Below, one piece after another: positions 2,930 to 31,849 of a stretch of 32,000 bases of DNA; positions within the stretch are counted from its first letter, which is position 1; each line of letters opens with the position of its first letter. The translations under genes and the position numbers were made by a program. A model generated the notes under the pieces. The model was not told the DNA's origin, searched no databases, and saw nothing but the letters and a program-made list of their open reading frames with translations. Source of the DNA: Microcystis aeruginosa NIES-843 (GTDB lineage: Bacteria; Cyanobacteriota; Cyanobacteriia; Cyanobacteriales; Microcystaceae); NCBI RefSeq assembly GCF_000010625.1, contig NC_010296.1, positions 1,590,001 through 1,622,000 of the forward strand, written 5' to 3'.

Positions 2930-4192
2930 TTATCGACCTAAAAGATTGGCAATATCAGCACATCCCCCCGGAATGGTTGCGCGGGACTTTTCCCCACACC
3001 AACGACAACAATAGTGACGTTGTTCCTCGCTCATATTTTTCACCCCGGTAAAATTGACATTTTCTACCACTGCTCCCGTGTGTTCTCCAGTGTCATAATT
3101 GGGGGGAACGCTGCGACTGCGGGGGGTAGCATTTTCTAGGGAACCATAAAATAAACGCATCCCTTTCATATCTGCCCCTCTTAAATTAGCTTCGTAGAGA
3201 ATTGTCCGCGATACATTTGCTTTCACCAAATCGCTATAACTTAAATCGGCCCGCACCATATTCGCTTCGCTTAAATCCGTCCAGCGCAAATCCTGCCCAG
3301 AAATGTCGGACCCCGCTAACATTACCCCCAATTGTACTACTCTTGTACCGAACTCTCGATCCTCCGCATAACCCCCTTCCCCGTCTAGAATCGGTCTGCC
3401 TAGATAACGATCGCGTTTAATCGGTGATAATAGCCGCGATTGACTCAAAAAACGCAGTATTTTCGCTTTTCCAGAGGCATCGACACTGCTGAGGATGGAA
3501 GCGGTGCGACCTTCTGCGATCGCTCTTTCCTGGGGCCAATCTTCTAAAAATCCCTCCTCATCCAAGGCTAGATCGGAAATCCCTTGAAAATAGGAATCGA
3601 TCGTCTGTTGTTGGGTAATGCGATTTTGTTGTATGGTTAAATCCTTAGAAATAACGTACTGTTCCCAGGCCACATAGACAGCTAACACGGCGATCATAAT
3701 CTGTCCCAAAGCCCCCACCCACTCGGCCCAGGAACCAAACTCATCGTATTTAAAACTCTCTAACCATCGCAATATGCGCTCGTAAACTCCTAAATATTTC
3801 CCTAATGCTGCCAGAGCAGCTATAAAAACTATAAAGGCAAAAACCGTCTGACGTTCAGAGGGGGTGAGATAATGGGCGATCCACTGGCGAATAGAGGGCA
3901 AAATCACCTGTAAAGATATTAATATCGCTACTATCGCCCCAGAAAAGCCTAACCAGTCCCAGCTAAAGACCAGGCCGATGGTCATCACCATCAGGGGGGC
4001 CAGTAGTAACCCCGCGTTACCCGGTCGAAGATCTTTTAATAGTAGGATGCGCTGACGCACGGGATTACGCGAAGATAAAGAGGAGACGTATTCAGAAGCA
4101 TCGGGGGGCGATAAACTGGTTTTACCGTTATTTTCGGGGTTATCGTCCCTATTTTCCGCGGCGAGTTTTTCTGGGTCTTTGCGATCGCTCAT
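2930..4192 (-). CDS. Membrane-anchored pentapeptide-repeat protein
   Basis: The C-terminal half carries A(D/N)LXX-type repeats (RWTDLSEANMVRADLSYSDLVKANVSRTILYEANLRGADMKG), and several TM helices lie in the middle. I prefer the ATG at 4192 (MSDRKDPEK) because the longer ORF extension runs into the IS left end. Confidence 0.8.
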   Translation of the reverse strand: MSDRKDPEKLAAENRDDNPENNGKTSLSPPDASEYVSSLSSRNPVRQRILLLKDLRPGNAGLLLAPLMVMTIGLVFSWDWLGFSGAIVAILISLQVILPSIRQWIAHYLTPSERQTVFAFIVFIAALAALGKYLGVYERILRWLESFKYDEFGSWAEWVGALGQIMIAVLAVYVAWEQYVISKDLTIQQNRITQQQTIDSYFQGISDLALDEEGFLEDWPQERAIAEGRTASILSSVDASGKAKILRFLSQSRLLSPIKRDRYLGRPILDGEGGYAEDREFGTRVVQLGVMLAGSDISGQDLRWTDLSEANMVRADLSYSDLVKANVSRTILYEANLRGADMKGMRLFYGSLENATPRSRSVPPNYDTGEHTGAVVENVNFTGVKNMSEEQRHYCCRWCGEKSRATIPGGCADIANLLGR

Positions 4193-9255: not shown

Positions 9256-9476
9256 TTAAATAGGGTTTGCTGAAAAAGCTTTTCGGTGGTGGCAGGGTGT
9301 GGGGTGTGGGGTGTGGGGTTTTATCGATTTTCAGGTGGTCAAGTAGCTAATTTTCAGGGAAAAAGTCCAGGAATTTTCCCCCCGATCCCCGCAATGGCTG
9401 GCACTTTTTGAGGGGAAAAAAGTCCAAAAGTCTTATCCAACAAGGTTTTTAGATTTATTCAGCAGACCCTAAATAC
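9256..9476 (+). mobile_element. MITE copy 1 (about 220 bp), with termini TAAATAGGGTTTGCTGAA / TTCAGCAGACCCTAAATA
   Basis: Inverted termini are visible. The body recurs reverse-complemented at 22510-23528. The same terminus heads the IS5/IS1182-like fragment at 25141. It contains three GGGTGTG units. Confidence 0.7.
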
Positions 9477-15334: not shown

Positions 15335-15606
15335 AGAAAGGCCTAGAAAATCGGTTTTTTTGAGCGAAAATAGCTGTAGAATGTAGCGACCTGATGTTTA
15401 AAAAAACTGAAAACTTGGCCGTCTTTCACGGCCTTGGGGTCACAATACCATGTTTTATTTTCCTAGCAAAGCTAAGGTTAACAATTCGCAACTTCTCTAT
15501 ACACAGCCCTAAGTAGGGTTTGCTGAAAAAGCTTTTCCTGGGTGTGGGGTGTCGGGTTTTAAGGGTGTTAGGGATATGCTGACAATAAATCCGGTTAAGT
15601 ACCTAA

Positions 15607-15689
15607 GCAAAATTAATTACACATATCTAACCACCTCTTGCCTCTTGCCTCTTGCCTCTTGCCTATCTTCACTAGGAAATTAATTTTGC
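15607..15689. repeat. Small palindromic element with internal heptamer array (CTCTTGC x4)
   Basis: Termini GCAAAATTAATT / AATTAATTTTGC. A homologous inverted copy lies at 31776-31849 and a solo end at about 2792-2812. Confidence 0.6.
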
Positions 15690-15868
15690 ACGACTACTTA
15701 TTAAAGACTGATTATTTATTCCCCCTTTTGCCTGTCCTGATCTGTAGCCTATACTCAACGGATTTAGTATAACCAACCATAAAATCGGCGATCGCCCTTG
15801 AAACCACAAGAAAATGGCGATCTCAGTTGATGTTCTTGCTTGACATATTACGCAAAACGGAATAGCAT

Positions 15869-16156
15869 TTGAATATGATTCAATCTTTCCGATGCAAGCA
15901 TACGCGATTACTTTTTGAAGGAGGATATCCGCCTCGTTTTCGCGGTTTCAAAGATACTGCTATTCGGAAGTTGACTCAATTAGATGCGGCTCAAACCTTA
16001 GAGTTTCTGCGCTCTCCACCAGGCAATCAACTTGGAGCTTTAAAAGGCGATAGAAAAGAACAATATAGTATTCGGATTAATTCTCAGTTTCGATTATGTT
16101 TTATCTGGACAAATAATGGACCTACTGATGTTGAAATTGTTGATTATCACTCATAA
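15869..16156 (+). CDS. higB: HigB-type toxin (plasmid maintenance system killer / RelE superfamily)
   Basis: MIQSFRCKHT...PPGNQLGALKGDRKEQYSIRINSQFRLCF...VEIVDYH is the canonical HigB pattern. It is followed 10 nt later by higA. Confidence 0.85.
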   Translation: MNMIQSFRCKHTRLLFEGGYPPRFRGFKDTAIRKLTQLDAAQTLEFLRSPPGNQLGALKGDRKEQYSIRINSQFRLCFIWTNNGPTDVEIVDYHS

Positions 16157-16166
16157 ATAATTAATT

Positions 16167-16481
16167 ATGAATAACCGTCCTATTAATCAAATGCGACCCG
16201 TTCACCCGGGAGAAATTCTGCGGGAAGATTTTTTGATTCCTCTAAATATGAGCGTGAATGCTTTAGCTTTAGCCTTGAAGGTTCCTGCATCTCGTATTCA
16301 TGAAATTGTTAAAGAACGTCGTTCTGTTTCGGCTGATACGGCAGCAAGATTAGCCCGCTATTTTGGCGGGGATGCTGCTTCCTGGCTCAATCTTCAAGTA
16401 ATTTATGATCTGAAGACTTTATCTAACCGTGAGGAGATTATTCAGCAAATTCAGCCCCGTATTTCCGAACAAATTGCCTGA
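16167..16481 (+). CDS. higA: HigA antitoxin (XRE-type HTH)
   Basis: HPGEILREDFL...NMSVNALALALKVPASRIHEIVKERRSVSADTAARLARYFG is the canonical HigA HTH. Confidence 0.9.
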   Translation: MNNRPINQMRPVHPGEILREDFLIPLNMSVNALALALKVPASRIHEIVKERRSVSADTAARLARYFGGDAASWLNLQVIYDLKTLSNREEIIQQIQPRISEQIA

Positions 16482-16667
16482 TTTTTAATTAGATTAAGTC
16501 CCAGAGATTAAAACACTTTCAAAAGGGTAAAAGGTACATGGGACGAACTCTACAAAATCGGCACTCGCTCCTGCTGCTGCCCAAAAAGCGATCGCTCTTT
16601 GCGCTCCTATCCCAAGCAATGGCAATTTTAAAGTTTAATCAAGAAGATGACGGCGATTACATTGAGC

Positions 16668-17123
16668 CTAGTCATAATGAAATTTACAACTGATAATAAT
16701 AATTTCTGTTTCTGTAATTTTATATACTAAGCGATGTTCATCATTAATGCGTCTTGACCAATAACCCTTGAGTTGATATTTTAACGGTTCGGGTTTACCG
16801 ATTCCAGAGAAAGGATGGCACAATATATCATCAATTAAATCAACGATTTTTGGCTCTTCGGTTTGTGTTATGCAATAAACGGAGGTTATAAGAGATGGAA
16901 CCCTTATAGAGAAAGGCATTTAGCGATTTTTGTCAATTATTTTTGATCTAGAGCGAACTAATCAATTAAGTCTCTTGCCAGATAAGGATTTAGTCTATTT
17001 ATGCCCCCCTATCGAACCATAACAAGTCCCGAAGAGCCCGATTTTTTTATAGAGTTTTTTGTTTTCTATCGACAATTCATTGAATTCTTTAAAAGCTTTC
17101 GGATCAAATACTATATTTTTCAC
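16668..17123 (-). pseudogene. yoeB: YoeB/Txe-family toxin gene split by a MITE
   Basis: Removing 16852-17038 plus one TSD copy joins 85 nt and 176 nt into an 87-codon frame: (GTG)MKNIVFDPKAFKEFNELSIENKKLYKKIVDLIDDILCHPFSGIGKPEPLKYQLKGYWSRRINDEHRLVYKITETEIIIISCKFHYD*. The annotated 83-aa ORF takes its first 31 codons from the MITE. Confidence 0.85.
16852..17038. mobile_element. 187-bp MITE with ISL3-type terminal inverted repeats and an 8-bp TSD
   Basis: Termini are GGCTCTTCGGTTTGTGTTATGC and, reverse-complemented, GGCTCTTCGGGACTTGTTATGG. A direct repeat CGATTTTT lies at 16844-16851 and 17039-17046. The termini resemble the right end of the ISL3 element at 26638 (GGCTCTTCGTTACCCTTTATGC). Confidence 0.85.
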
Positions 17124-17385
17124 TCCATTCTTTTGTGGTAATTGTCACTAAGTTTTCTTTATTTTCTATTCTGTCAATAGCTTCCGATAATTGACGCTGA
17201 TTGGCTTCTGTTGAAAGAAGATATTCGGTTGTATCGGGTTCAGAATCAGATACTAAAATAATAATATCCACATCTGTTCCTTCTTCTAGTTCCGCAGAAT
17301 AAAGCTCTATTTTTCCTTCTCTGCCAACAATTCCTTTCTGTTTAATCGCTCTAATCATGATTTTTTCTCTTAAGATGTCAAACAA
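17104..17385 (-). CDS. Putative antitoxin of the yoeB cassette (YefM/Phd-like C-terminal segment)
   Basis: TEYLLSTEANQRQLSEAIDRIENKENL resembles the YefM/Phd C-terminal toxin-binding part. Its stop overlaps the reconstructed toxin start. The N-terminus is atypical, and the start may be the ATG at 17358. Confidence 0.6.
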   Translation of the reverse strand: MFDILREKIMIRAIKQKGIVGREGKIELYSAELEEGTDVDIIILVSDSEPDTTEYLLSTEANQRQLSEAIDRIENKENLVTITTKEWSEKYSI

Positions 17386-17588
17386 TTATGGCTATTATAT
17401 CAAAATCAGCATGAGTTAGCACTGATGAAAAAAAAGTGATCGCCATTCCCCAAAAATTGATCCCTCCAAAAGCGATCGCCGTTCACCTCATCAAAAAGCG
17501 ATCACACCATGAGAAGAAAACCTGATCGCACTAAAGTCCAAAATAATCGCAAATCAGATAATTATTGTTAAAAAAACAATTTGGTACG

Positions 17589-17927
17589 TTACATTTCATT
17601 AGCGTACCCTACACGATCACCGACCATACTAACCGGTTGCTTGTCGAGGGCAATTTCAAATAAAAATTCAGGGGCAAAGTCTGCTCCGTTTGGCCATTCT
17701 ATTGTCCGACTATTTACATATACTTTTTGAAATAAGCTTTTATCTTTTAAGGGTTCAAAGATTTCTCCATACAATTCTTGTTCTAAATCTACAATCCCTT
17801 CTATTCCATTATTAAAGGTTAGCTTTAATTGATACTTATCCAGATATTTCACACAGATAACATGAAGAAATAGCTCCTTTTTAGGGAAGGGGATCGATTC
17901 TGTTAAGAGGTTTTCTTTGACGCGCAT
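17589..17927 (-). CDS. DUF2442 domain protein
   Basis: VICVKYLDKYQLKLTFNNGIEGIVDL...IEWPNGADFAPEFLF is the DUF2442 pattern. The start is uncertain (17927 or 17966). It overlaps the end of the DUF4160 gene, as is usual for this pair. Confidence 0.7.
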   Translation of the reverse strand: MRVKENLLTESIPFPKKELFLHVICVKYLDKYQLKLTFNNGIEGIVDLEQELYGEIFEPLKDKSLFQKVYVNSRTIEWPNGADFAPEFLFEIALDKQPVSMVGDRVGYANEM

Positions 17928-18138
17928 TTTCCCAGTTCTCCAATAGTTCAGATTGTTGTAGATCAAGCCACTCCCATATTAAATTTAATCCTCTTTTGGG
18001 CATTTGACCACAAACTTCACCTGTTTGAATCATTATAATCGCTTCATAATCTTGATACTCGGCATGGATATGAGGCGGATTGTGATCATTATAGTTCATT
18101 GTGATTTTGATTCCATAGAAGCTTGATAGATTAGGCAT
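17881..18138 (-). CDS. DUF4160 domain protein
   Basis: MPNLSSFYGIKITMNYNDHNPPHIHAEYQDYEA is the characteristic DUF4160 N-terminus. The listed 159-aa ORF is an upstream over-extension through repeat DNA. Confidence 0.8.
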   Translation of the reverse strand: MPNLSSFYGIKITMNYNDHNPPHIHAEYQDYEAIIMIQTGEVCGQMPKRGLNLIWEWLDLQQSELLENWENARQRKPLNRIDPLP

Positions 18139-18268
18139 GAGTAAGAATCGTAATAAAGGTTGCTTTCTAAAAGTTTGCCCCCTATTGTAAGCGATCGCCC
18201 TCATTCCCAAAAAACGATCGCACTTCCCATCATCAAAAAGCGATCGCACTACAAGATTAGCGATCACA

Positions 18269-18697
18269 CTAATTCCAGTTTTGGAAGTTGCCGCCGTTGC
18301 AACCCAGGGTGTAGACCTTGCCCTCAGTGTTGCTATCCAGACACAAGCCAGTGGACACATTAACTAAGCTCTGACCAGATCTCTTCCAGTTTTGGAAGTT
18401 GCCGCCGTTGCAACCCAGGGTGTAGACCTTGCCCTCAGTGTTGCTATCCAGACACAAGCCAGTCGAGCCGTTCTTATATGCTGCATTCACTGATGTCGAA
18501 TCAGGTAAGTTTACTGATGGATGCATTGCTACAACCAAAAAAATTACGCTTAGTACGAACGCCATAAAGCGTAAGAGTGGATTGTAAACAGTTGACACTA
18601 CCTCAGCCCCAAAAACACTGAAGTTACCTCCAAGAATGGCAATCAACAAAAGAATTGCGCCAAAGACGAACGCTCCGATTTTCAAGTTCTCTGGCAT
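18269..18697 (-). CDS. Membrane-anchored protein with two ricin-type (QxW) beta-trefoil lectin repeats
   Basis: Two N-terminal hydrophobic helices, then GLCLDSNTEGKVYTLGCNGGNFQNW twice. Confidence 0.7.
   Translation of the reverse strand: MPENLKIGAFVFGAILLLIAILGGNFSVFGAEVVSTVYNPLLRFMAFVLSVIFLVVAMHPSVNLPDSTSVNAAYKNGSTGLCLDSNTEGKVYTLGCNGGNFQNWKRSGQSLVNVSTGLCLDSNTEGKVYTLGCNGGNFQNWN
18273..18463. repeat. Tandem duplication inside the lectin gene (111-bp period, 78-80 bp identical)
   Basis: 18275-18352 and 18386-18463 are identical base for base. Confidence 0.9.
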
Positions 18698-18835: not shown

Positions 18836-19120
18836 TTAATATAATAACTCGATCTCTCCTGGTTGCCAAGTCTTATCAAACCAAGGCTCAAGCGGGCTAT
18901 AAAGCCGAAGAATCGTATTCCAACCCGTTTCAGGAATCGTCTGCACCCAGTTATTCTCCTTACCCGCAGGCGGTTTCGGCCCGAAATAGATATCTACAGA
19001 GCCATCGGCATTAACCAAAAGTCCCTTTGTCTGACTACCGACACTAGGAAACTGTTGATCCGCCTGAATCATCGCTCGCGTCTGGTTACTGTAAAGAATC
19101 ACTGACCAGAATAGTAGCAC
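18836..19120 (-). pseudogene. C-terminal fragment of a DUF1214-domain protein
   Basis: NADGSVDIYFGPKPPAGKENNWVQTIPETGWNTILRLYSPLEPWFDKTWQPGEIE matches the DUF1214 C-terminal pattern. The rest of the (normally >400 aa) protein is absent. Confidence 0.5.
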
Positions 19121-19271
19121 GCTAGGATGTGTTAGCGTAACGCAGAATAATTACAAATTAATCATGATTAAAAGCAAAAAAGTGCGTTAAGTAACTATTT
19201 TTTAAGTCAAGACGGCAATTAGCGATCGCCCCTCTTCATCAAAAAGCGATCGCCATTCCCCAAAAATTGCT

Positions 19272-19493
19272 CTATACAGTGCTTAATGCTTTGATTTTCG
19301 CTATCTCTGTTTCTAAGTTGGGAAGTTTTTGATTATATTTTTGGGCTGTTTCTAACCATAAATCTTTTACTATCAGTAATTCTTGTAGGGTTTCTTCTAA
19401 GGTTTCACCCTGAGCCAAACAGCCAGATAGTGCTGGAATTTCAGCGACAAAACCGCCTTCTTCACAGGGATAAATAATAATTGGATAATTCAT
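19272..19493 (-). CDS. hicB: HicB-family antitoxin
   Basis: YPIIIYPCEEGGFVAEIPALSGCLAQGETLEETLQEL is the HicB/UPF0150 N-terminal fold pattern. It lies 2 nt downstream of hicA. Confidence 0.85.
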   Translation of the reverse strand: MNYPIIIYPCEEGGFVAEIPALSGCLAQGETLEETLQELLIVKDLWLETAQKYNQKLPNLETEIAKIKALSTV

Positions 19494-19495
19494 CT

Positions 19496-19756
19496 TTAGT
19501 TATCTCCGATAATTTCAAGAACTCGACGAATATAAACAGATTTTACTTTTTTATTATGAACAGGTATGACCAAAATAATATCATTTCTTTTAAAAATGTG
19601 ATGGCTACCTGTAATTCTATCAAGGGAAAACCCTTCTAATTCTAGCAGTTGACAAATATCGTTGAATCTTGCGTTATTAGGACTATTCTTCAGTAGTTCT
19701 AGTAGTTTATCCCTTTTAGACACGAGTGAATGCCATTCAACAATGAGCTTGAGCAA
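19496..19756 (-). CDS. hicA: HicA-family toxin
   Basis: FNDICQLLELEGFSLDRITGSHHIF...VIPVHNKKVKSVYIRRVLEII is the HicA pattern with the catalytic-region GSHH. Confidence 0.8.
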   Translation of the reverse strand: MLKLIVEWHSLVSKRDKLLELLKNSPNNARFNDICQLLELEGFSLDRITGSHHIFKRNDIILVIPVHNKKVKSVYIRRVLEIIGDN

Positions 19757-19990
19757 AAATCCATTTTAACCCAAGATGATCGCTATTTTCCCCTCCTCAT
19801 CCCCAAAAAGCGATCGCCCTCTGCGTTCCTATCCCAAGCAATGGCAGTTTTAAACATTAATCAAGAAGATGACGGCGATCGCACTACGTTCTTCGGCATC
19901 GCACTTAGACTCACAGCTGCAATCAATGTGCATGGTGCGTTCTCCAAAATCGATCGCTGGAGTAGTAGGACTTGCATTAGGGAACGCACC

Positions 19991-21009
19991 CTAGGACTGA
20001 GTTATACATTGTTTTTCTTTGTCAGTTAAATCAATATATTCAGTTTTTATTCGTTTATTCTTGATTAGTATTCTAAAATACGGACATTTTCCATTTACTG
20101 ATAAATCTTTATCATCATTCCCTTTCCTGAATTTAATTATTTCAAATTGGTCGGGATTGAATTTATGTAAAAATGTTATTGGTACACCCATAACCCCCTT
20201 GAAGTCTAAGGGAATGTCTTGGGTTTTATTGACATTAATTCCATCATAATTGTCATATTTTGGATATTCAGCTTCATTGCCAAAATATCTTTTTGTGAGA
20301 GCCATATCTTCCTGTCGTTTTGATGTGTCTAAGTTGGTTAACCATAAACAATTATTTGGAGAGAATTGTCAATACGAGCCTCTGTTCCATAAAGTTCATA
20401 TTGTTCGGGAACAATAAAACCAGAAATACCTCTACCAAGATTTATTCCTAACCACGCTTTGTTTTCTTTAATTAGTTTGAAAATTTCTTGATAGGTTATT
20501 GCATTAATATTGCCAATTATCAAAAACTTTTTGTCGTATTTAACTAATTGAGCTACATATTCTCTGAATAATGAAAATGGGGGATTAGTCACAACAATAT
20601 CGGACTTTTTTAATAGTTCAATACTTTCAGGACTACGAAAATCCCCATCCCCATTAAAGTAAACAATGTCAGTTGAACTATGTTTATTTTTTTCTCTCTC
20701 TGTACCTGTATATTCAAAGAAAAAACCCTTTTCATCTTCTTCTGCATTAAATAAATCTCTCACTTGTTCTCGATAACAAGATGTTATTATTTTTTTTAGA
20801 CCTAACTTTTTAAAGTTTGAGGCAAAATACTTAAAAAAGTTACTAATTCGGGGGTCATCGCAATTGCAATAAACTACTTTATTTTCAAAATGACTTTTAT
20901 AGTGTTGCAACTCACTTTCTATATCTGAAAGTTGTGTATAAAACTCGTCACTTTTTAATTTTTTAGCATTTTGCAATAATTTATTTGTCGCATTTCTTGC
21001 CATGTTCAA
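19991..21009 (-). pseudogene. EcoRI-methylase-family N6-adenine DNA methyltransferase, frameshifted
   Basis: ORF 20338-21009 carries DEFYTQ and VVTNPPFSL. ORF 19991-20305 carries YPKYDNYDGINV...GVMGVPITFL. A third frame between them reads NNCLWLTNLDTSKRQED and bridges into the second ORF, which indicates a 1-nt indel near 20350-20385. Confidence 0.85.
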
Positions 21010-21122: not shown

Positions 21123-22479
21123 TGGGACTTAAACAAATTTCAAGCCCAAATGTAGCCCAAAGCCGCTTTGTGAGCGGAAAAGACATCAATATTCTGCGTT
21201 AGCCAAGTGAAAAAACGAAAAGACATCGCTGTACGAAAAGCCTCCAAAGCATCAGTAAATGTCTCCAAAGGTTTATTCGCCCATCGCCTTTGTAGTCCCC
21301 CGGTTAAGTGATGCCAGAGAATAAAAGTGTAGGCACAAAACACTAGGATAAAATGGCGAAGAAGGCTTTCTTTCTCGCGAACCCGATATTCTCTTAGCCC
21401 TAACCATCCTTTCGCCTCTCGATAGAAAACTTCTACCCAATTTCTTTGGGAGTAAGTTTCTACTACCCATTGCGGGGTTACTTTTTCCGCCTGGACATTC
21501 GTGATAAAATAATCGATGTCCGTCGCTTCTTCCCAAGAACTTGCGTTCATGACGATGGCAAAAGTTCTCTCTTCTTCTCAAGAAGCGATGCGAGCGTAAA
21601 CAATAAACACGTATAGGGTTTTCGGTTTTTCAACTGAGAGAATTACTGGGTTAAAACTCTCTAGATTCAAGCTTTTTGCTAATTTCTCCAGACTGATTTC
21701 TTCCTCGATTCCTGATTCCGTTTTTCGGATAATTTTTCGATTTTTAGCCACTCCTCCTAAATACTTTAGTTTTCTCTTTTCTAACTCTTTCAGAAACGGC
21801 GTGTTGTTTTCATACCCCGCATCTATCAAGACAATTTTCGGTCGGTATTTTCGCTTTAAACTTCGGTCGATTAATTCGAGTCCGAGTTCGGGTTTCTTTT
21901 TCAACTCTTCGTCTTCTTTTCCCGATAGTAGAGAAGATGCCGGTTGATAGAGCTCGATGTCTAAGGGTAAGCTTTTTTTCCCGTCGTAGAGATGGGTGGT
22001 TACTACCACTACTCCGTTGTCTGTCTTGCCGATCTCACCGAGGTATTGTCTTCCGACTCCCTCGGTAAAATTGCCACTTTTTCGATGTCCCGAATCATCC
22101 AGAATCATCGTGAAGCCCACGCCGATCCTAGTCGGCGAGCATTTGTTCATCACTTCCAGACGACGTTGGTTAATTGGCGTCGCCGACCAAGGAGCCTCGG
22201 TTAAAAAGTGATGTAATCGGTGATAAACCACCCCCACCGAGTTATCCGCCATCTGGGTTAGGTTTTTTCGCTCGCTTTCTCCTAATAATCCGCCTAAATA
22301 TTGTCGGAAGCCATCTTTTTGCGACTGGTTTTTGAAACAGTCATCGAATCTAGCGCACCATCTCTCGAAGCAGGGCGGCATAGCGGATGGGGTCGTTTCT
22401 CCCATGGGCGTATTTTGACGTGAAAGCCTACTATGACTTGATTATAGCTAAAAAAGTTCGGTTCTGTGTTTAAGTCCCA
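21123..22479 (-). mobile_element. IS701-like (IS4 superfamily) insertion sequence
   Basis: 13-bp terminal inverted repeat TGGGACTTAAACA at 21123-21135 and, as complement, at 22467-22479. It encloses a DDE transposase gene. Confidence 0.8.
21140..22405 (-). pseudogene. IS701-family DDE transposase with a single in-frame TGA (21578-21580)
   Basis: ORFs 21578-22405 and 21140-21550 are in the same frame: ...VYARIAS*EEERTFAIVMNASSWEE... Candidate catalytic motifs DDSGHRK and LIDAGY lie upstream of the stop, and YREAKGWLG lies downstream. Confidence 0.8.
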
Positions 22480-22509: not shown

Positions 22510-23528
22510 TAAATAGGGTCTGCTGAATAAATCTAAAAACCTTGTTGGATAAGACTTTTGGACTTTTTTCCCCTCAAAAAGTGCCAGCCATTGCGGGGAT
22601 CGGGGGGAAAATTCCGGGACTTTTTCCCAGAAAATTAGGTACTTGACCACCTGAAAATCGATAAAACCCCACACCCCACACCCCACACCCGTTACAGTAG
22701 AGCAGGAAGTCGCCTTCCCACCCCCTGCTTCAAAACCGGACTTACGACTTTCGCCGTATCCGGCTCCTGAGTAACTAGGCTACTGTCATTAGTAGAATAA
22801 TAATGGGAATTATTATTTCCTTGTCTATTCAACCCTCTTGGCTGTATCCCCACCAGACAAGATTGTTGGTTTTAGGGCGTATATGACCGTTGATTGTTGC
22901 TTAGACTTCCTAGTTACCCGTCCTTTGTCAGCATATCTTTGATATTACTCAAAGCCTTGGCTTTTAAGGACATCCTCTCCCTCTATTGACTTGCGGATGG
23001 TTTCCTACTGCCCCGAACGGGCAGAGTCAATCAGGGTTACTTCGTTCCCTATAACCATTGGTTGAACCCTTAGGATGATACTGTCCACAACAGAGTAACG
23101 GGAATGCCTTACTGATAGTGGTATGAGCTATCAGCCCCAACTCTGTTAACTTTTGTTTCGAGCCTGTCAGCCTTTTGGCTCGTGGGTGTTGACGATGGTT
23201 AATTCGTATCTTCGCCCCAGGGCTATCCATAGGTTCTGGCTCAACGGGTTTCTGATTTAGGCTATCAGATACCGCTTTTTTTTCCTCGCTCACTACCTCA
23301 GATGTACCAAGTCTAAAGCAGCAGGAAATGCCGTCACTCTAGGCATCTAGAGGACAGGACTAAGGTTATTACTAACCCGCACCTGTAGGGTTATAAAGTT
23401 ATCAAGGTACTACATTTACCAAGCGGCTAATCCTCTAAACGTCTTACTGTCTAGTTTCTAGCCAACGAATTGCACCACACCCCACACCCTGCCACCACCG
23501 AAAAGCTTTTTGCCGCAAACCCTAAATA
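22510..23528 (-). mobile_element. MITE copy 2 (inverted relative to copy 1), carrying a 785-bp insertion
   Basis: 22510-22690 plus 23476-23528 is the reverse complement of 9256-9476. The interruption falls inside the GGGTGTG repeat. Confidence 0.7.
22691..23475 (-). ncRNA. ORF-less group II intron (ribozyme/retroelement)
   Basis: The minus strand starts GTGCAATTCG. Domain V reads GAGCCGGATACGGCGAAAGTCGTAAGTCCGGTT. Domain VI has a GCGA loop and a bulged A 8 nt from the end, ...CTACTGTAAC. There is no RT ORF. Confidence 0.8.
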
Positions 23529-25140: not shown

Positions 25141-25411
25141 TAAATAGGGTTTGCTGAATAATGGTAAAAACCTTACAGGAAAGGGCTTTTAGCTTGATTG
25201 AGAGCTTCCCAAATGCACTTAAATCTGCTAGAATCGCTCAAAACCCTTGCATCACCCTTGCATCTTCTCTCATTAGTGCTAATGTACCGTAAAATCGAGT
25301 TACCCTCAACCCCACCGGAAAACTTCGAGCTGCCCTTTGAGGGGAAATTATCCCAAGAAAATCGTTGGGTAATTATGGCCAACCTCATTCCCTGGTCAGA
25401 ATTTGAAAACT
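25141..25411 (+). mobile_element. Left-end fragment of an IS5/IS1182-like element (probable parent family of the MITEs)
   Basis: Starts TAAATAGGGTTTGCTGAA. From the ATG at 25282 it encodes MYRKIELPSTPPENFELPFEGKLSQENRWVIMANLIPWSEFE, the typical N-terminus of IS1182/IS5-type transposases. Similarity is lost at about 25411. Confidence 0.55.
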
Positions 25412-26638
25412 ACGGGAGCGTCTCATTTATGCAAGCGAGTAATTATACTTGTCCCTAAAACTGGTTTCTAGCAAGGCTTTCAAAATAGCTTGACATAAAA
25501 CCTGATTTAGGGGTTACAAAGGTGAGATGCTCCCTAAACTACACCAAAATCATCGATATTTAGTCAAAGATTTACCAATCTCAGGACAACCAGTGTACCT
25601 ACAAGTTAATCGTCGTCAATTTAAGTGCGGTAATTGTCAGAGACCCTTTAGCGAAGAGTTAGATTTTGTCGCCAAGAAACGAACCTATACGAAAAGACTA
25701 GCCGAAAATATACTCGAACAATTAAAAGAAGGAGATATTTTAAATGTTAGCCGAAGAAATAACGTAACGGAAGAAGAGATTCAAAGAATGGTAGAGGACA
25801 TCGCCGAAGAAATTACAGAGCCAGATTTATCGAAATTAAAAAGACTAGGAATTGATGAAATCGCTCTAGTCAAAGGACAAAAAAATTACTGTGCGGTTTT
25901 AGTAAATTTAGATACGGGAAAACTAATAGCTATTCTAGAGAAGCGAACACAAGAGGAGTTGAGAGAAACGCTTACGGGCTGGGGAAAAGAGGTGTTAGAG
26001 CAAATTGAAGAAGTCAGCATAGATCTTTGGTTGCCCTATAAAAATTTGATGAAAGAATTGATGCCATCGGCCGAGGTAGTCGCCGATAGATTCCATGTCA
26101 TGAAACAAATTAATCAAGAGTTAGACGAACAGAGAAGAGCGGAAAAAAGAGCCGTAGAAGCGCAGAAAAATAAAAAACAGAAAGCGGAAAAAGAAGCAAA
26201 GCTAGAAGTTTTAAAGCGAAGTAAATATAGCCTGTTAAAAAATGAAGAAGATTTAACGGAACCCCAAAAAATTAAACTAGAAGCTATCAAAGAAAATTTG
26301 ACAAATTTGAAAAAGATGCAGGAATTAAAGGAAGAATTTAGAAAGATTTATGAAACCTCAAAGAATCCGACAGAGGGAATGCTATCCATCTCGGAATGGT
26401 TGGCAAAATCCTCCAGTGTTTTTACCAAGAGTTGTCAAACAATCCGAAACTGGTTTGGAGAAATAATTAGTTATTTCGAGCGAAGGACAACGAATGGGGT
26501 GGTCGAGGGAATCAACAATAAACTTAAACTAATAAAACGGAGAGGCTATGGCTTTAGAAACTTTCGGAATTTTTGGGTTAGAAGTATGTTATCTTGGCAT
26601 CTTGTATGTTGATTTAGCATAAAGGGTAACGAAGAGCC
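25412..26638 (+). mobile_element. ISL3-family element, right IR intact, left end degenerate
   Basis: The right terminus ...GGGTAACGAAGAGCC ends at 26638. The left side has only a weak match (GGGAGCGTCTCATTTATGC at 25414). Confidence 0.6.
25527..26612 (+). CDS. ISL3-family transposase (N-terminal zinc-finger region apparently missing or decayed)
   Basis: LHQNHRYLVKDLPISGQPVYLQVNRRQFKCGNCQRPF, GIDEIAL, SIDLW and NGVVEGINNKLKLIKRRGYGFRN are ISL3 hallmarks. The usual upstream CPxCG segment is absent, and frames upstream contain stops. Confidence 0.85.
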   Translation: MLPKLHQNHRYLVKDLPISGQPVYLQVNRRQFKCGNCQRPFSEELDFVAKKRTYTKRLAENILEQLKEGDILNVSRRNNVTEEEIQRMVEDIAEEITEPDLSKLKRLGIDEIALVKGQKNYCAVLVNLDTGKLIAILEKRTQEELRETLTGWGKEVLEQIEEVSIDLWLPYKNLMKELMPSAEVVADRFHVMKQINQELDEQRRAEKRAVEAQKNKKQKAEKEAKLEVLKRSKYSLLKNEEDLTEPQKIKLEAIKENLTNLKKMQELKEEFRKIYETSKNPTEGMLSISEWLAKSSSVFTKSCQTIRNWFGEIISYFERRTTNGVVEGINNKLKLIKRRGYGFRNFRNFWVRSMLSWHLVC

Positions 26639-31744: not shown

Positions 31745-31775
31745 TGTTGTAACTCCAGTAACTTATAAGTAGTCT

Positions 31776-31849
31776 TGCAAAATTAATTTCTTGGTTAGGA
31801 TAGGCAATAGGCAATAGGCAAGAAGTAGTTAAATCTGTGTGATTAATTG
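31776..31849. repeat. Second copy (inverted) of the small palindromic heptamer-array element
   Basis: GCAAAATTAATTTC...(GGCAATA)x3...GATTAATTGC. The reverse complement aligns with 15607-15689. Confidence 0.55.

Follow-up and report, generated by a model that had tools for sequence, protein, structure and literature searches.

A published 187-bp MITE interrupts the toxin gene yoeB in Microcystis aeruginosa NIES-843 beside an intact antitoxin gene

Introduction

The genomes of Microcystis carry hundreds of copies of MITEs, miniature transposable elements with inverted repeats (Kaneko et al. 2007, PMC2779907). Those catalogued in strain NIES-843 include MaeMITEb, with a length of 187 bp and 132 copies, and the same study lists the ISL3-family element ISMae36, 1424 bp long and present in 32 copies. 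A 187-nt MITE is also described from strain PCC 7806 (Stark et al. 2024, BMC Genomics 25:922, PMC11448079); it is bounded by GGCTCTTCG inverted terminal repeats and 8-nt direct repeats, folds into a stem-loop and carries two small outward open reading frames (ORFs). These authors propose that it is mobilised by ISL3 transposases from 1,215-bp genes, document new insertions within ~26 years of culture and report that it often lies near toxin–antitoxin (TA) loci. Here, we analyze an element of this kind that lies inside yoeB, the toxin gene of a TA cassette, in a 32,000-nt stretch of the M. aeruginosa NIES-843 genome (NC_010296.1, positions 1,590,001 to 1,622,000; hereafter the window).

The toxin of the Escherichia coli YefM-YoeB system provides the reference for this gene. 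Its catalytic set comprises Glu46, Arg59, Arg65, His83 and Tyr84, whose roles are set out in PMC3814384, and Glu46 and Arg59 are among the residues required for activity (Feng et al. 2013, PMC3814384). Helices α1 and α2 of E. coli YoeB form the dimer interface and the antitoxin-binding pocket, with Trp5 and Trp10 receiving YefM, while Arg22 and Lys26 of α2 touch the 16S rRNA, and the W5A substitution alone lowers the melting temperature (Tm) by ~20 °C (PMC6821326).

The analysis indicates that insertion of the MITE has very probably knocked out yoeB and left the antitoxin intact, with a chimeric 83-aa ORF as a probable inactive by-product. Since the MITE family and its link to ISL3 are already published, the novelty is lower than a preliminary description of the window had implied: the locus presents a published MITE family acting as it is known to act in Microcystis, with no new element or mechanism. 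It represents a clean, recent MITE knockout for which the empty-site alleles are known.

Results

A 187-bp insertion splits yoeB

Removal of the element together with one copy of its duplicated target (187+8 bp), which joins the two yoeB fragments of Table 1 on the minus strand, restores an 86-aa ORF with a GTG start (MKNIVFDPKAF...SCKFHYD). The reconstructed protein matches the Pfam YoeB_toxin profile (PF06769) over its full length (positions 1-80/80, E 7.6e-31, 106.4 bits against a cut-off of 27), scores 99.6 bits on TIGR02116 (threshold 51.8) and finds, among solved structures, RelK from M. tuberculosis and YoeB from E. coli and S. aureus, with E values of 1e-21 to 1e-22. The restored 86-aa YoeB ending in ...CKFHYD, which the preliminary description had put forward, thus passed the homology check. 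By itself, the interrupted gene encodes only positions 21-80 of the profile, and the 5' fragment reads on into the MITE as a 42-aa ORF (16995-17123). The GTG start at 17123 had been described as overlapping the stop codon of the antitoxin gene; the two genes do overlap, but over 20 nt and not at the stop codon alone, and the same arrangement is called in uninterrupted relatives.

The restored toxin resembles those of YefM-YoeB (Axe-Txe) systems in being a full-length YoeB with a Glu/Arg/Arg/His/Tyr catalytic set, and in having its antitoxin gene upstream and overlapping. The catalytic positions of the interrupted allele all hold the consensus residue, and the toxin that the MITE struck was therefore probably functional.

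Table 1 Features of the interrupted yoeB locus and related insertions. Positions are those of the window unless a contig is named.
Feature	Position	Strand	Remarks
yoeB 3' fragment	16668..16851	-	K27 to D86 and stop; catalytic E47, R60, R66, H84 and Y85 as in the family consensus
Chimeric 83-aa ORF	16668..16919	-	23 MITE-derived residues (MPFSIRVPSLITSVYCITQTEEP) in frame with 60 YoeB residues (K27-D86)
Target-site duplication, left copy CGATTTTT	16844..16851	.	Single copy at empty sites
187-bp MITE	16852..17038	+	Non-autonomous, ISL3-type; matching termini, 8-bp target-site duplication, no transposase
Left terminal inverted repeat, GGCTCTTCGGTTTGTGTTATG	16852..16872	+	19/22 match to the left end of the 1422-bp ISL3 element in L047
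Right terminal inverted repeat, reverse complement GGCTCTTCGGGACTTGTTATG	17018..17038	-	
Target-site duplication, right copy CGATTTTT	17039..17046	.	Single copy at empty sites
yoeB 5' fragment	17047..17123	-	Begins at GTG; holds codons 1-25 and nt 1-2 of codon 26; the target 8-mer completes codons 26-28
Intact 84-aa antitoxin gene	17104..17358	-	YefM-like C-terminal motif, weakly RelN-like N-terminal part; 20-nt overlap with the yoeB start
ISMae36-like ISL3 element, 5'-truncated	25535..26638	+	Ends match the MITE; ~319 bp gone, including the left terminal inverted repeat and the transposase N-terminus
Insertions in yoeB (orthologous or paralogous) in other Microcystis contigs	L049:2700-2880, L050:1030-1230, L052:2700-2860		

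The target 8-mer reads AAAAATCG on the yoeB strand, CGATTTTT on the plus strand of the window, and is duplicated perfectly. An uninterrupted 86-aa gene accompanied by an identical antitoxin is found on five contigs, from assemblies GCA_027532315 (L007) and GCA_046343395 (L014) and from JGI metagenomes (L010, L015 and L016). When aligned with the window, L007, L014, L010 and L016 show one gap of exactly 195 bp (187+8) and hold the 8-mer once, and BLAST junctions put L015, L011 and L060 at the same empty site. The closest relative outside Microcystis, Crocosphaera subtropica ATCC 51142, has an uninterrupted cassette in which the genes for an 84-aa antitoxin and an 86-aa YoeB overlap by 20 nt. 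The insertion itself recurs in other assemblies. The complete genome of M. viridis NIES-102 (AP019314.1), 99.8% identical to the window over 10 kb, carries the identical insertion, as do JGI contig 3300015613, which is 100% identical to the window, and at least three further independent ENA metagenome assemblies. Given the empty-site alleles, the Crocosphaera outgroup cassette and the presence of the same insertion in independent assemblies, the 187-bp insertion is derived, and is neither ancestral sequence nor an assembly artefact. The 195-bp gap also bears out the clean split of yoeB noted in the preliminary description, and its check against related genomes was passed, as these lack the 187 bp and hold the 8-mer once.

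The yoeB remnant carries no later substitutions, which points to a recent insertion, one that predates the split between NIES-102 and the window strain and postdates divergence from the empty-site alleles. The inactivation had been called datable, and this is so in the relative sense but no further.

The inserted element is a known ISL3-type MITE

The element starts GGCTCTTCGG and finishes CCGAAGAGCC, giving perfect 10-bp inverted repeats (10/10) that are complementary at 17/21 positions when extended. The 21-nt terminal pattern occurs three times in the window, where 0.08 would be expected by chance: two occurrences mark the ends of the MITE and the third, at 26618-26638, that of an ISL3 element. 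All ORFs within the MITE are of 30 codons or fewer, with no transposase gene, and its RNA is predicted to form a long hairpin (-54.3 kcal/mol, z -4.9). An Rfam scan of the MITE and the TA locus found nothing, and a search of a phage collection with the MITE gave no match. There is no second copy in the window; apart from the MITE, the truncated ISL3 element alone has a GGCTCTTCG terminus there.

A strict two-anchor pattern, GGCTCTTCGGNNNNTGTTATG...CATAACANNNNCCGAAGAGCC, was too narrow for a family search and gave 0 genome matches, as most copies end ...ACGAAGAGCC or contain CATACCA. Contig L012 leads into a different MITE copy, ~90% identical to that of the window, and this comparison exposed blocks conserved across copies. 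We searched species-representative genomes with a 20-mer from one such block, which yielded 32 loci, nearly all in Microcystis; the complete genome of BLCC-F210 accounts for at least 15. Full-length copies number 31, the window copy included, and measure 186-187 bp with pairwise identities of 87-100% (mean 93%). Perfect 8-bp target-site duplications (TSDs) flank 21/31 copies, and two more have TSDs with one mismatch; the duplicated targets are 76% A+T, often with a T-run at the end. Of the 31 copies, 28 have the outward ATG ORF that provides the start of the chimera, and 28 have the ORF at the opposite end. At its right end the window copy reads ...GTCCCGAAGAGCC, the majority of the family ...GTAACGAAGAGCC. 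Homologues also lie on three Microcystis plasmids, in line with Stark et al. 2024. Full-length copies are present on contigs of a Crocinitomicaceae metagenome-assembled genome (L035, L037, L038, L041 and L044) and on a contig of Nocardioides allogilvus (L020); we suspect that these non-cyanobacterial copies are Microcystis contamination in the bins or assemblies.

The window MITE shares with the element of Stark et al. 2024 a length of 187 bp, GGCTCTTCG repeats, an 8-bp duplication, a stem-loop and restriction to Microcystis. Its peptides MPFSIRVPSLITSVYCITQTEE and MPPYRTITSPEE match the printed MSFSIRVPSLITPVYCIRQTEE and MPPYRTITSNEE at 19/22 and 11/12 residues, respectively. By its sequence, it is the 187-nt ISL3-associated MITE of that study and not a new element, and it is probably also the MaeMITEb of Kaneko et al. 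2007, judging by length and family. The family analysis and the literature thus concur with the preliminary assignment to an ISL3-type MITE with an 8-bp TSD. Unlike the copies of Stark et al. 2024, the window MITE is located inside yoeB, and we found no mention of this insertion in the text and supplementary files of that study that we searched, nor in papers naming both Microcystis and YoeB.

A matching ISL3 element and a model for the insertion

Contig L047 holds a complete ISL3 element of 1422 bp, with a 404-aa transposase (NCBIfam transpos_ISL3, E 8e-99) and its own 8-bp TSD, GGAATTGG. The ends of this element read GGCTCTTCGGTAACTGTTATGC and ...GGGTAACGAAGAGCC, the right end in its longer form being ...GCATAAAGGGTAACGAAGAGCC, and the MITE ends match them at 19/22 positions on the left and 18/22 on the right. 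The MITE has the terminal ~22 bp, the 8-bp TSD and the host genus in common with ISMae36-type ISL3 elements (1424 bp in NIES-843, 1422 bp in L047), but differs in its unrelated interior of ~140 bp and in encoding no transposase. Within the window, a truncated copy lies 8.5 kb from the MITE; it is 96.6% identical to the L047 element, and its 361-aa ORF scores 331 bits on NCBIfam transpos_ISL3.

The explanation that we favour, and consider very likely, is that the 187-bp MITE entered yoeB at codons 26-28 in an ancestor shared by the window strain and M. viridis NIES-102. Its termini and TSD length, which it shares with an ISMae36-like ISL3 element (1422 bp), suggest that such an element supplied the DDE transposase (404 aa) for its movement in trans. 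A staggered cut followed by repair duplicated the 8-bp target AAAAATCG. The insertion parts ~26 codons at the start of yoeB from the remaining 60, such that full-length toxin can no longer be made and its function is probably lost. The upstream gene for the 84-aa antitoxin has its start region, and presumably its promoter, untouched and probably continues to be expressed. The 83-aa chimeric ORF is a by-product, the family's outward ATG ORF having fallen in frame with the yoeB remnant by chance.

Some points weigh against this explanation. The window was found to hold only the truncated ISMae36-like copy and no intact one, and MaeMITEb is a probable match by its 187-bp length and its family. 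The chimera retains all of the catalytic residues. A promoter-like site inside the MITE faces the chimeric ORF (TTGATT-18-AATAAT, 9/12), given which the chimera might be made; the match is weak, there being seven such sites in 1 kb against 3.3 expected.

The truncated ISL3 copy has lost ~43 transposase codons, its 361-aa ORF begins at a fortuitous ATG, and it adjoins what appears to be the N-terminal coding part of another transposase (25300-25420). An ISL3 copy near this region in NIES-102 (L008 1-500) was considered as the partner of the MITE and rejected, since its subterminal sequence differs (GGCTCTTCTAGG...). The extra ISL3 element of NIES-102, with a 384-aa transposase and the end GGCTCTTCTAGG..., lies in a DDE_5 transposase gene at window ~21859; the window has this gene (21578-22405, 275 aa) in uninterrupted form, which marks its strain as a close relative of NIES-102 and not NIES-102 itself.

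The antitoxin is intact and only partly YefM-like

The 84-aa antitoxin sequence is identical in strains with and without the insertion, and the earlier statement that the antitoxin is intact holds. The antitoxin gave no hit to Pfam PhdYeFM_antitox (PF02604), which is matched by 1/44 members of its family (E 0.009), and single-sequence searches of PDB and Pfam gave no significant match; NCBIfam RelN matched below threshold. Among 1.84 billion representative proteins we found 88 relatives. A profile derived from them matches the toxin-binding C-termini of YefM, RelJ and S. aureus YefM at weak E values of 0.0025-0.02, and weak NCBIfam matches among the relatives are to RelN (9/44) and YefM (8/44). 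AlphaFold predicts helices at residues 44-48, 51-65 and 75-82, with a predicted template modelling score (pTM) of only 0.38.

The C-terminus of the antitoxin appears similar to YefM, with TEYLLSTEANxxxL in place of the E. coli TAYLLRSPANxxxL, whereas the N-terminal 40 residues bear a weak resemblance to RelN and not to the YefM dimerisation and DNA-binding domain. Also unlike YefM, the protein falls below every Pfam PhdYeFM threshold and belongs to a small family. It is best described as modular, with a YefM-like C-terminus and a different N-terminal domain, and as lying outside the Pfam-defined Phd/YefM family.

Other lesions in yoeB and a possible role of selection

The same toxin has been hit independently in other contigs: they show one or two further small insertions, what may be a frameshift, and the substitutions E47K and R60H, with the antitoxin retained. 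Over the 496-bp cassette, the reconstructed window allele differs from L007, L014 and L016 at two nucleotides, both non-synonymous in the toxin, where these three carry R60H and E73K. In L055, which represents proteins seen on over 70 contigs, the toxin has E47K in addition, as in the most abundant alleles, and the antitoxin has E68K. All nucleotide differences among these cassette alleles are non-synonymous G-to-A changes, with zero synonymous. In E. coli YoeB, E47 corresponds to the general base Glu46 and R60 to the transition-state arginine Arg59.

An IS630-type MITE (~126 bp, TA duplication, terminal inverted repeat AGTA..CAAAATTAATT) follows yoeB codon ~78 in L049-L051 (protein P0019) and is of the same family as the element at window ~15595-15701. 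At the same TA, L052-L054 (protein P0023) carry a different insert of ~92 bp, CAGCACTTTT...AAAACGCTG. Both P0019 and P0023 are 112-aa products without the C-terminal His-Tyr. A 1-nt deletion in the A-run that is the MITE target frameshifts yoeB in L011 (1126-1500) and leaves the antitoxin intact, at a coverage of ~3.6x that makes this a possible homopolymer error. Only the M015S2 allele (P0002, L060) is near the consensus, barring a one-codon deletion.

The counts are small, but the pattern of lesions is compatible with toxin loss being selected for, or tolerated, while the antitoxin is kept. That YoeB has been convergently disarmed across Microcystis lineages, by positive selection to lose the toxin and keep the antitoxin, is a tentative proposal that we regard as possible but doubtful. 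If it is true, the retained antitoxin could, for example, give immunity against plasmids or phages that bear yoeB. Saavedra De Bast and colleagues are said to have put forward, in 2008, an anti-addiction idea in which the toxins of chromosomal TA systems decay and leave orphan antitoxins. The locus resembles such decay in that the toxin is disabled beside an intact cognate antitoxin, and differs in that several distinct lesions have put this toxin out of action in lineages that are close relatives.

Alternatively, the insertion may be neutral debris in a TA cassette that was already dead, and reflect the very high MITE activity of Microcystis and not selection on the toxin. The hundreds of MITE copies per genome and the frequent proximity of the MITE to TA loci reported by Stark et al. 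would suit such a history, as would the A/T-rich target run of the kind that the MITE family prefers. However, the interrupted allele has the consensus at all catalytic positions and gives no sign of an earlier death, the near-identical cassette alleles differ only non-synonymously, with E47K and R60H on residues required for activity, and independent insertions are found in other lineages. Although the numbers are small, this suggests that toxin loss was favoured or well tolerated with the antitoxin kept, and we consider neutral debris unlikely. The intact-consensus, MITE-split, E47K/R60H and otherwise inserted alleles form a natural series that could show whether selection removes chromosomal toxins while antitoxins remain.

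The chimeric ORF is probably inactive

The 83-aa ORF had been described as a fusion of 31 MITE-encoded codons to 52 residues of YoeB. It is in frame and is annotated in public records, but its composition is 23+60, the MITE part being made up of 22 codons and 2 nt. NCBI names the product 'MULTISPECIES: Txe/YoeB family addiction module toxin [Microcystis]' (P0067). The chimera lacks YoeB residues 1-26, which comprise helix α1 and the first half of α2, and has unrelated sequence in their place. In the AlphaFold model, the MITE-encoded N-terminus has a predicted local distance difference test (pLDDT) score of 45-53 and is not helix-like. We used the model for this part only, as it is uninformative on the stability of the truncated core, where the predicted fold of the last 60 residues is dictated by the alignment. 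Because α1 and the first half of α2 are gone, the chimera is most likely unstable or inactive, and we regard it as probably non-functional. Since 28/31 family copies have the outward ORF, fusion ORFs are to be expected wherever a copy enters a gene in a suitable frame. RefSeq and IMG nonetheless call the chimera a Txe/YoeB toxin, such that TA censuses of Microcystis will count a broken gene as functional.

It is highly improbable that the chimera is instead a functional toxin, possibly attenuated or re-regulated, for which the MITE provides the start codon and perhaps a promoter, the gene having been rewired and not inactivated. The in-frame fusion keeps E47, R60, R66, H84 and Y85, the promoter-like hexamer pair points to the ORF, the yoeB remnant is unchanged from the inferred ancestor in every residue it keeps, with zero substitutions, and the RefSeq label is that of a toxin. 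Against this, the sequence that replaces residues 1-26 is predicted to be disordered, while in E. coli YoeB these helices provide the dimer interface, the YefM-binding pocket and the 16S rRNA contacts, and W5A costs it ~20 °C of Tm. An active toxin unable to bind its antitoxin would be lethal. The outward ORF is family-wide, so that an in-frame fusion is expected in about one-third of genic insertions, and the promoter match is weak. There is next to no chance that the 187 bp are an assembly or scaffolding artefact, or ancestral sequence precisely deleted in other strains: the metagenome contigs L006 and L012 end within the MITE or switch to another copy there, which indicates that assemblers struggle at this point, but the finished genome AP019314.1 and at least five independent assemblies have the identical insertion, a perfect TSD flanks the MITE, 30 other copies lie at unrelated sites, most with their own TSDs, and the Crocosphaera outgroup is without the element.

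The surrounding island

The interrupted cassette lies in a dense island of small addiction or defence-type modules (15869-16481, 17589-18360, 18269-18697 and 19000-21000), which include HigB/HigA-like, DUF4160/DUF2442 and HicA/HicB modules and a split EcoRI-methylase gene. Successive TA cassettes are set apart, as if by a fence, by a recurring direct repeat of ~100-110 bp, found at window 16546-16657 and 19768-19879, and also in L060 at ~523-627, 1218-1315, 2576-2667 and 3269-3350. Klemencic et al. 2021 described a different repeat, of 152 bp, that fences another Microcystis TA module. Shorter, HIP1-containing repeats are found upstream of cassettes (17431-17514, 18210-18270 and 19241-19272).

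A second MITE family, with the terminal inverted repeat AGTAGTC.GGCAAAATTAATTTCC, has copies or ends at 15595-15701, 2778-2813 and 31756-31823, one of which lies between higB and a GH57 gene; the family probably belongs to the IS630 type, with TA as the duplicated target. A group II intron catalytic domain (Rfam RF00029, 55 bits) is found on the minus strand at 22691-22768. It adjoins one member of a 177-nt inverted repeat pair (9295-9471 and 22514-22690) whose members lie 13 kb from each other and are 98% complementary; this arrangement suggests that the 3' end of a group II intron is present twice. Finally, a ricin-B-lectin gene in the island carries a 111-bp tandem duplication (18273-18466).

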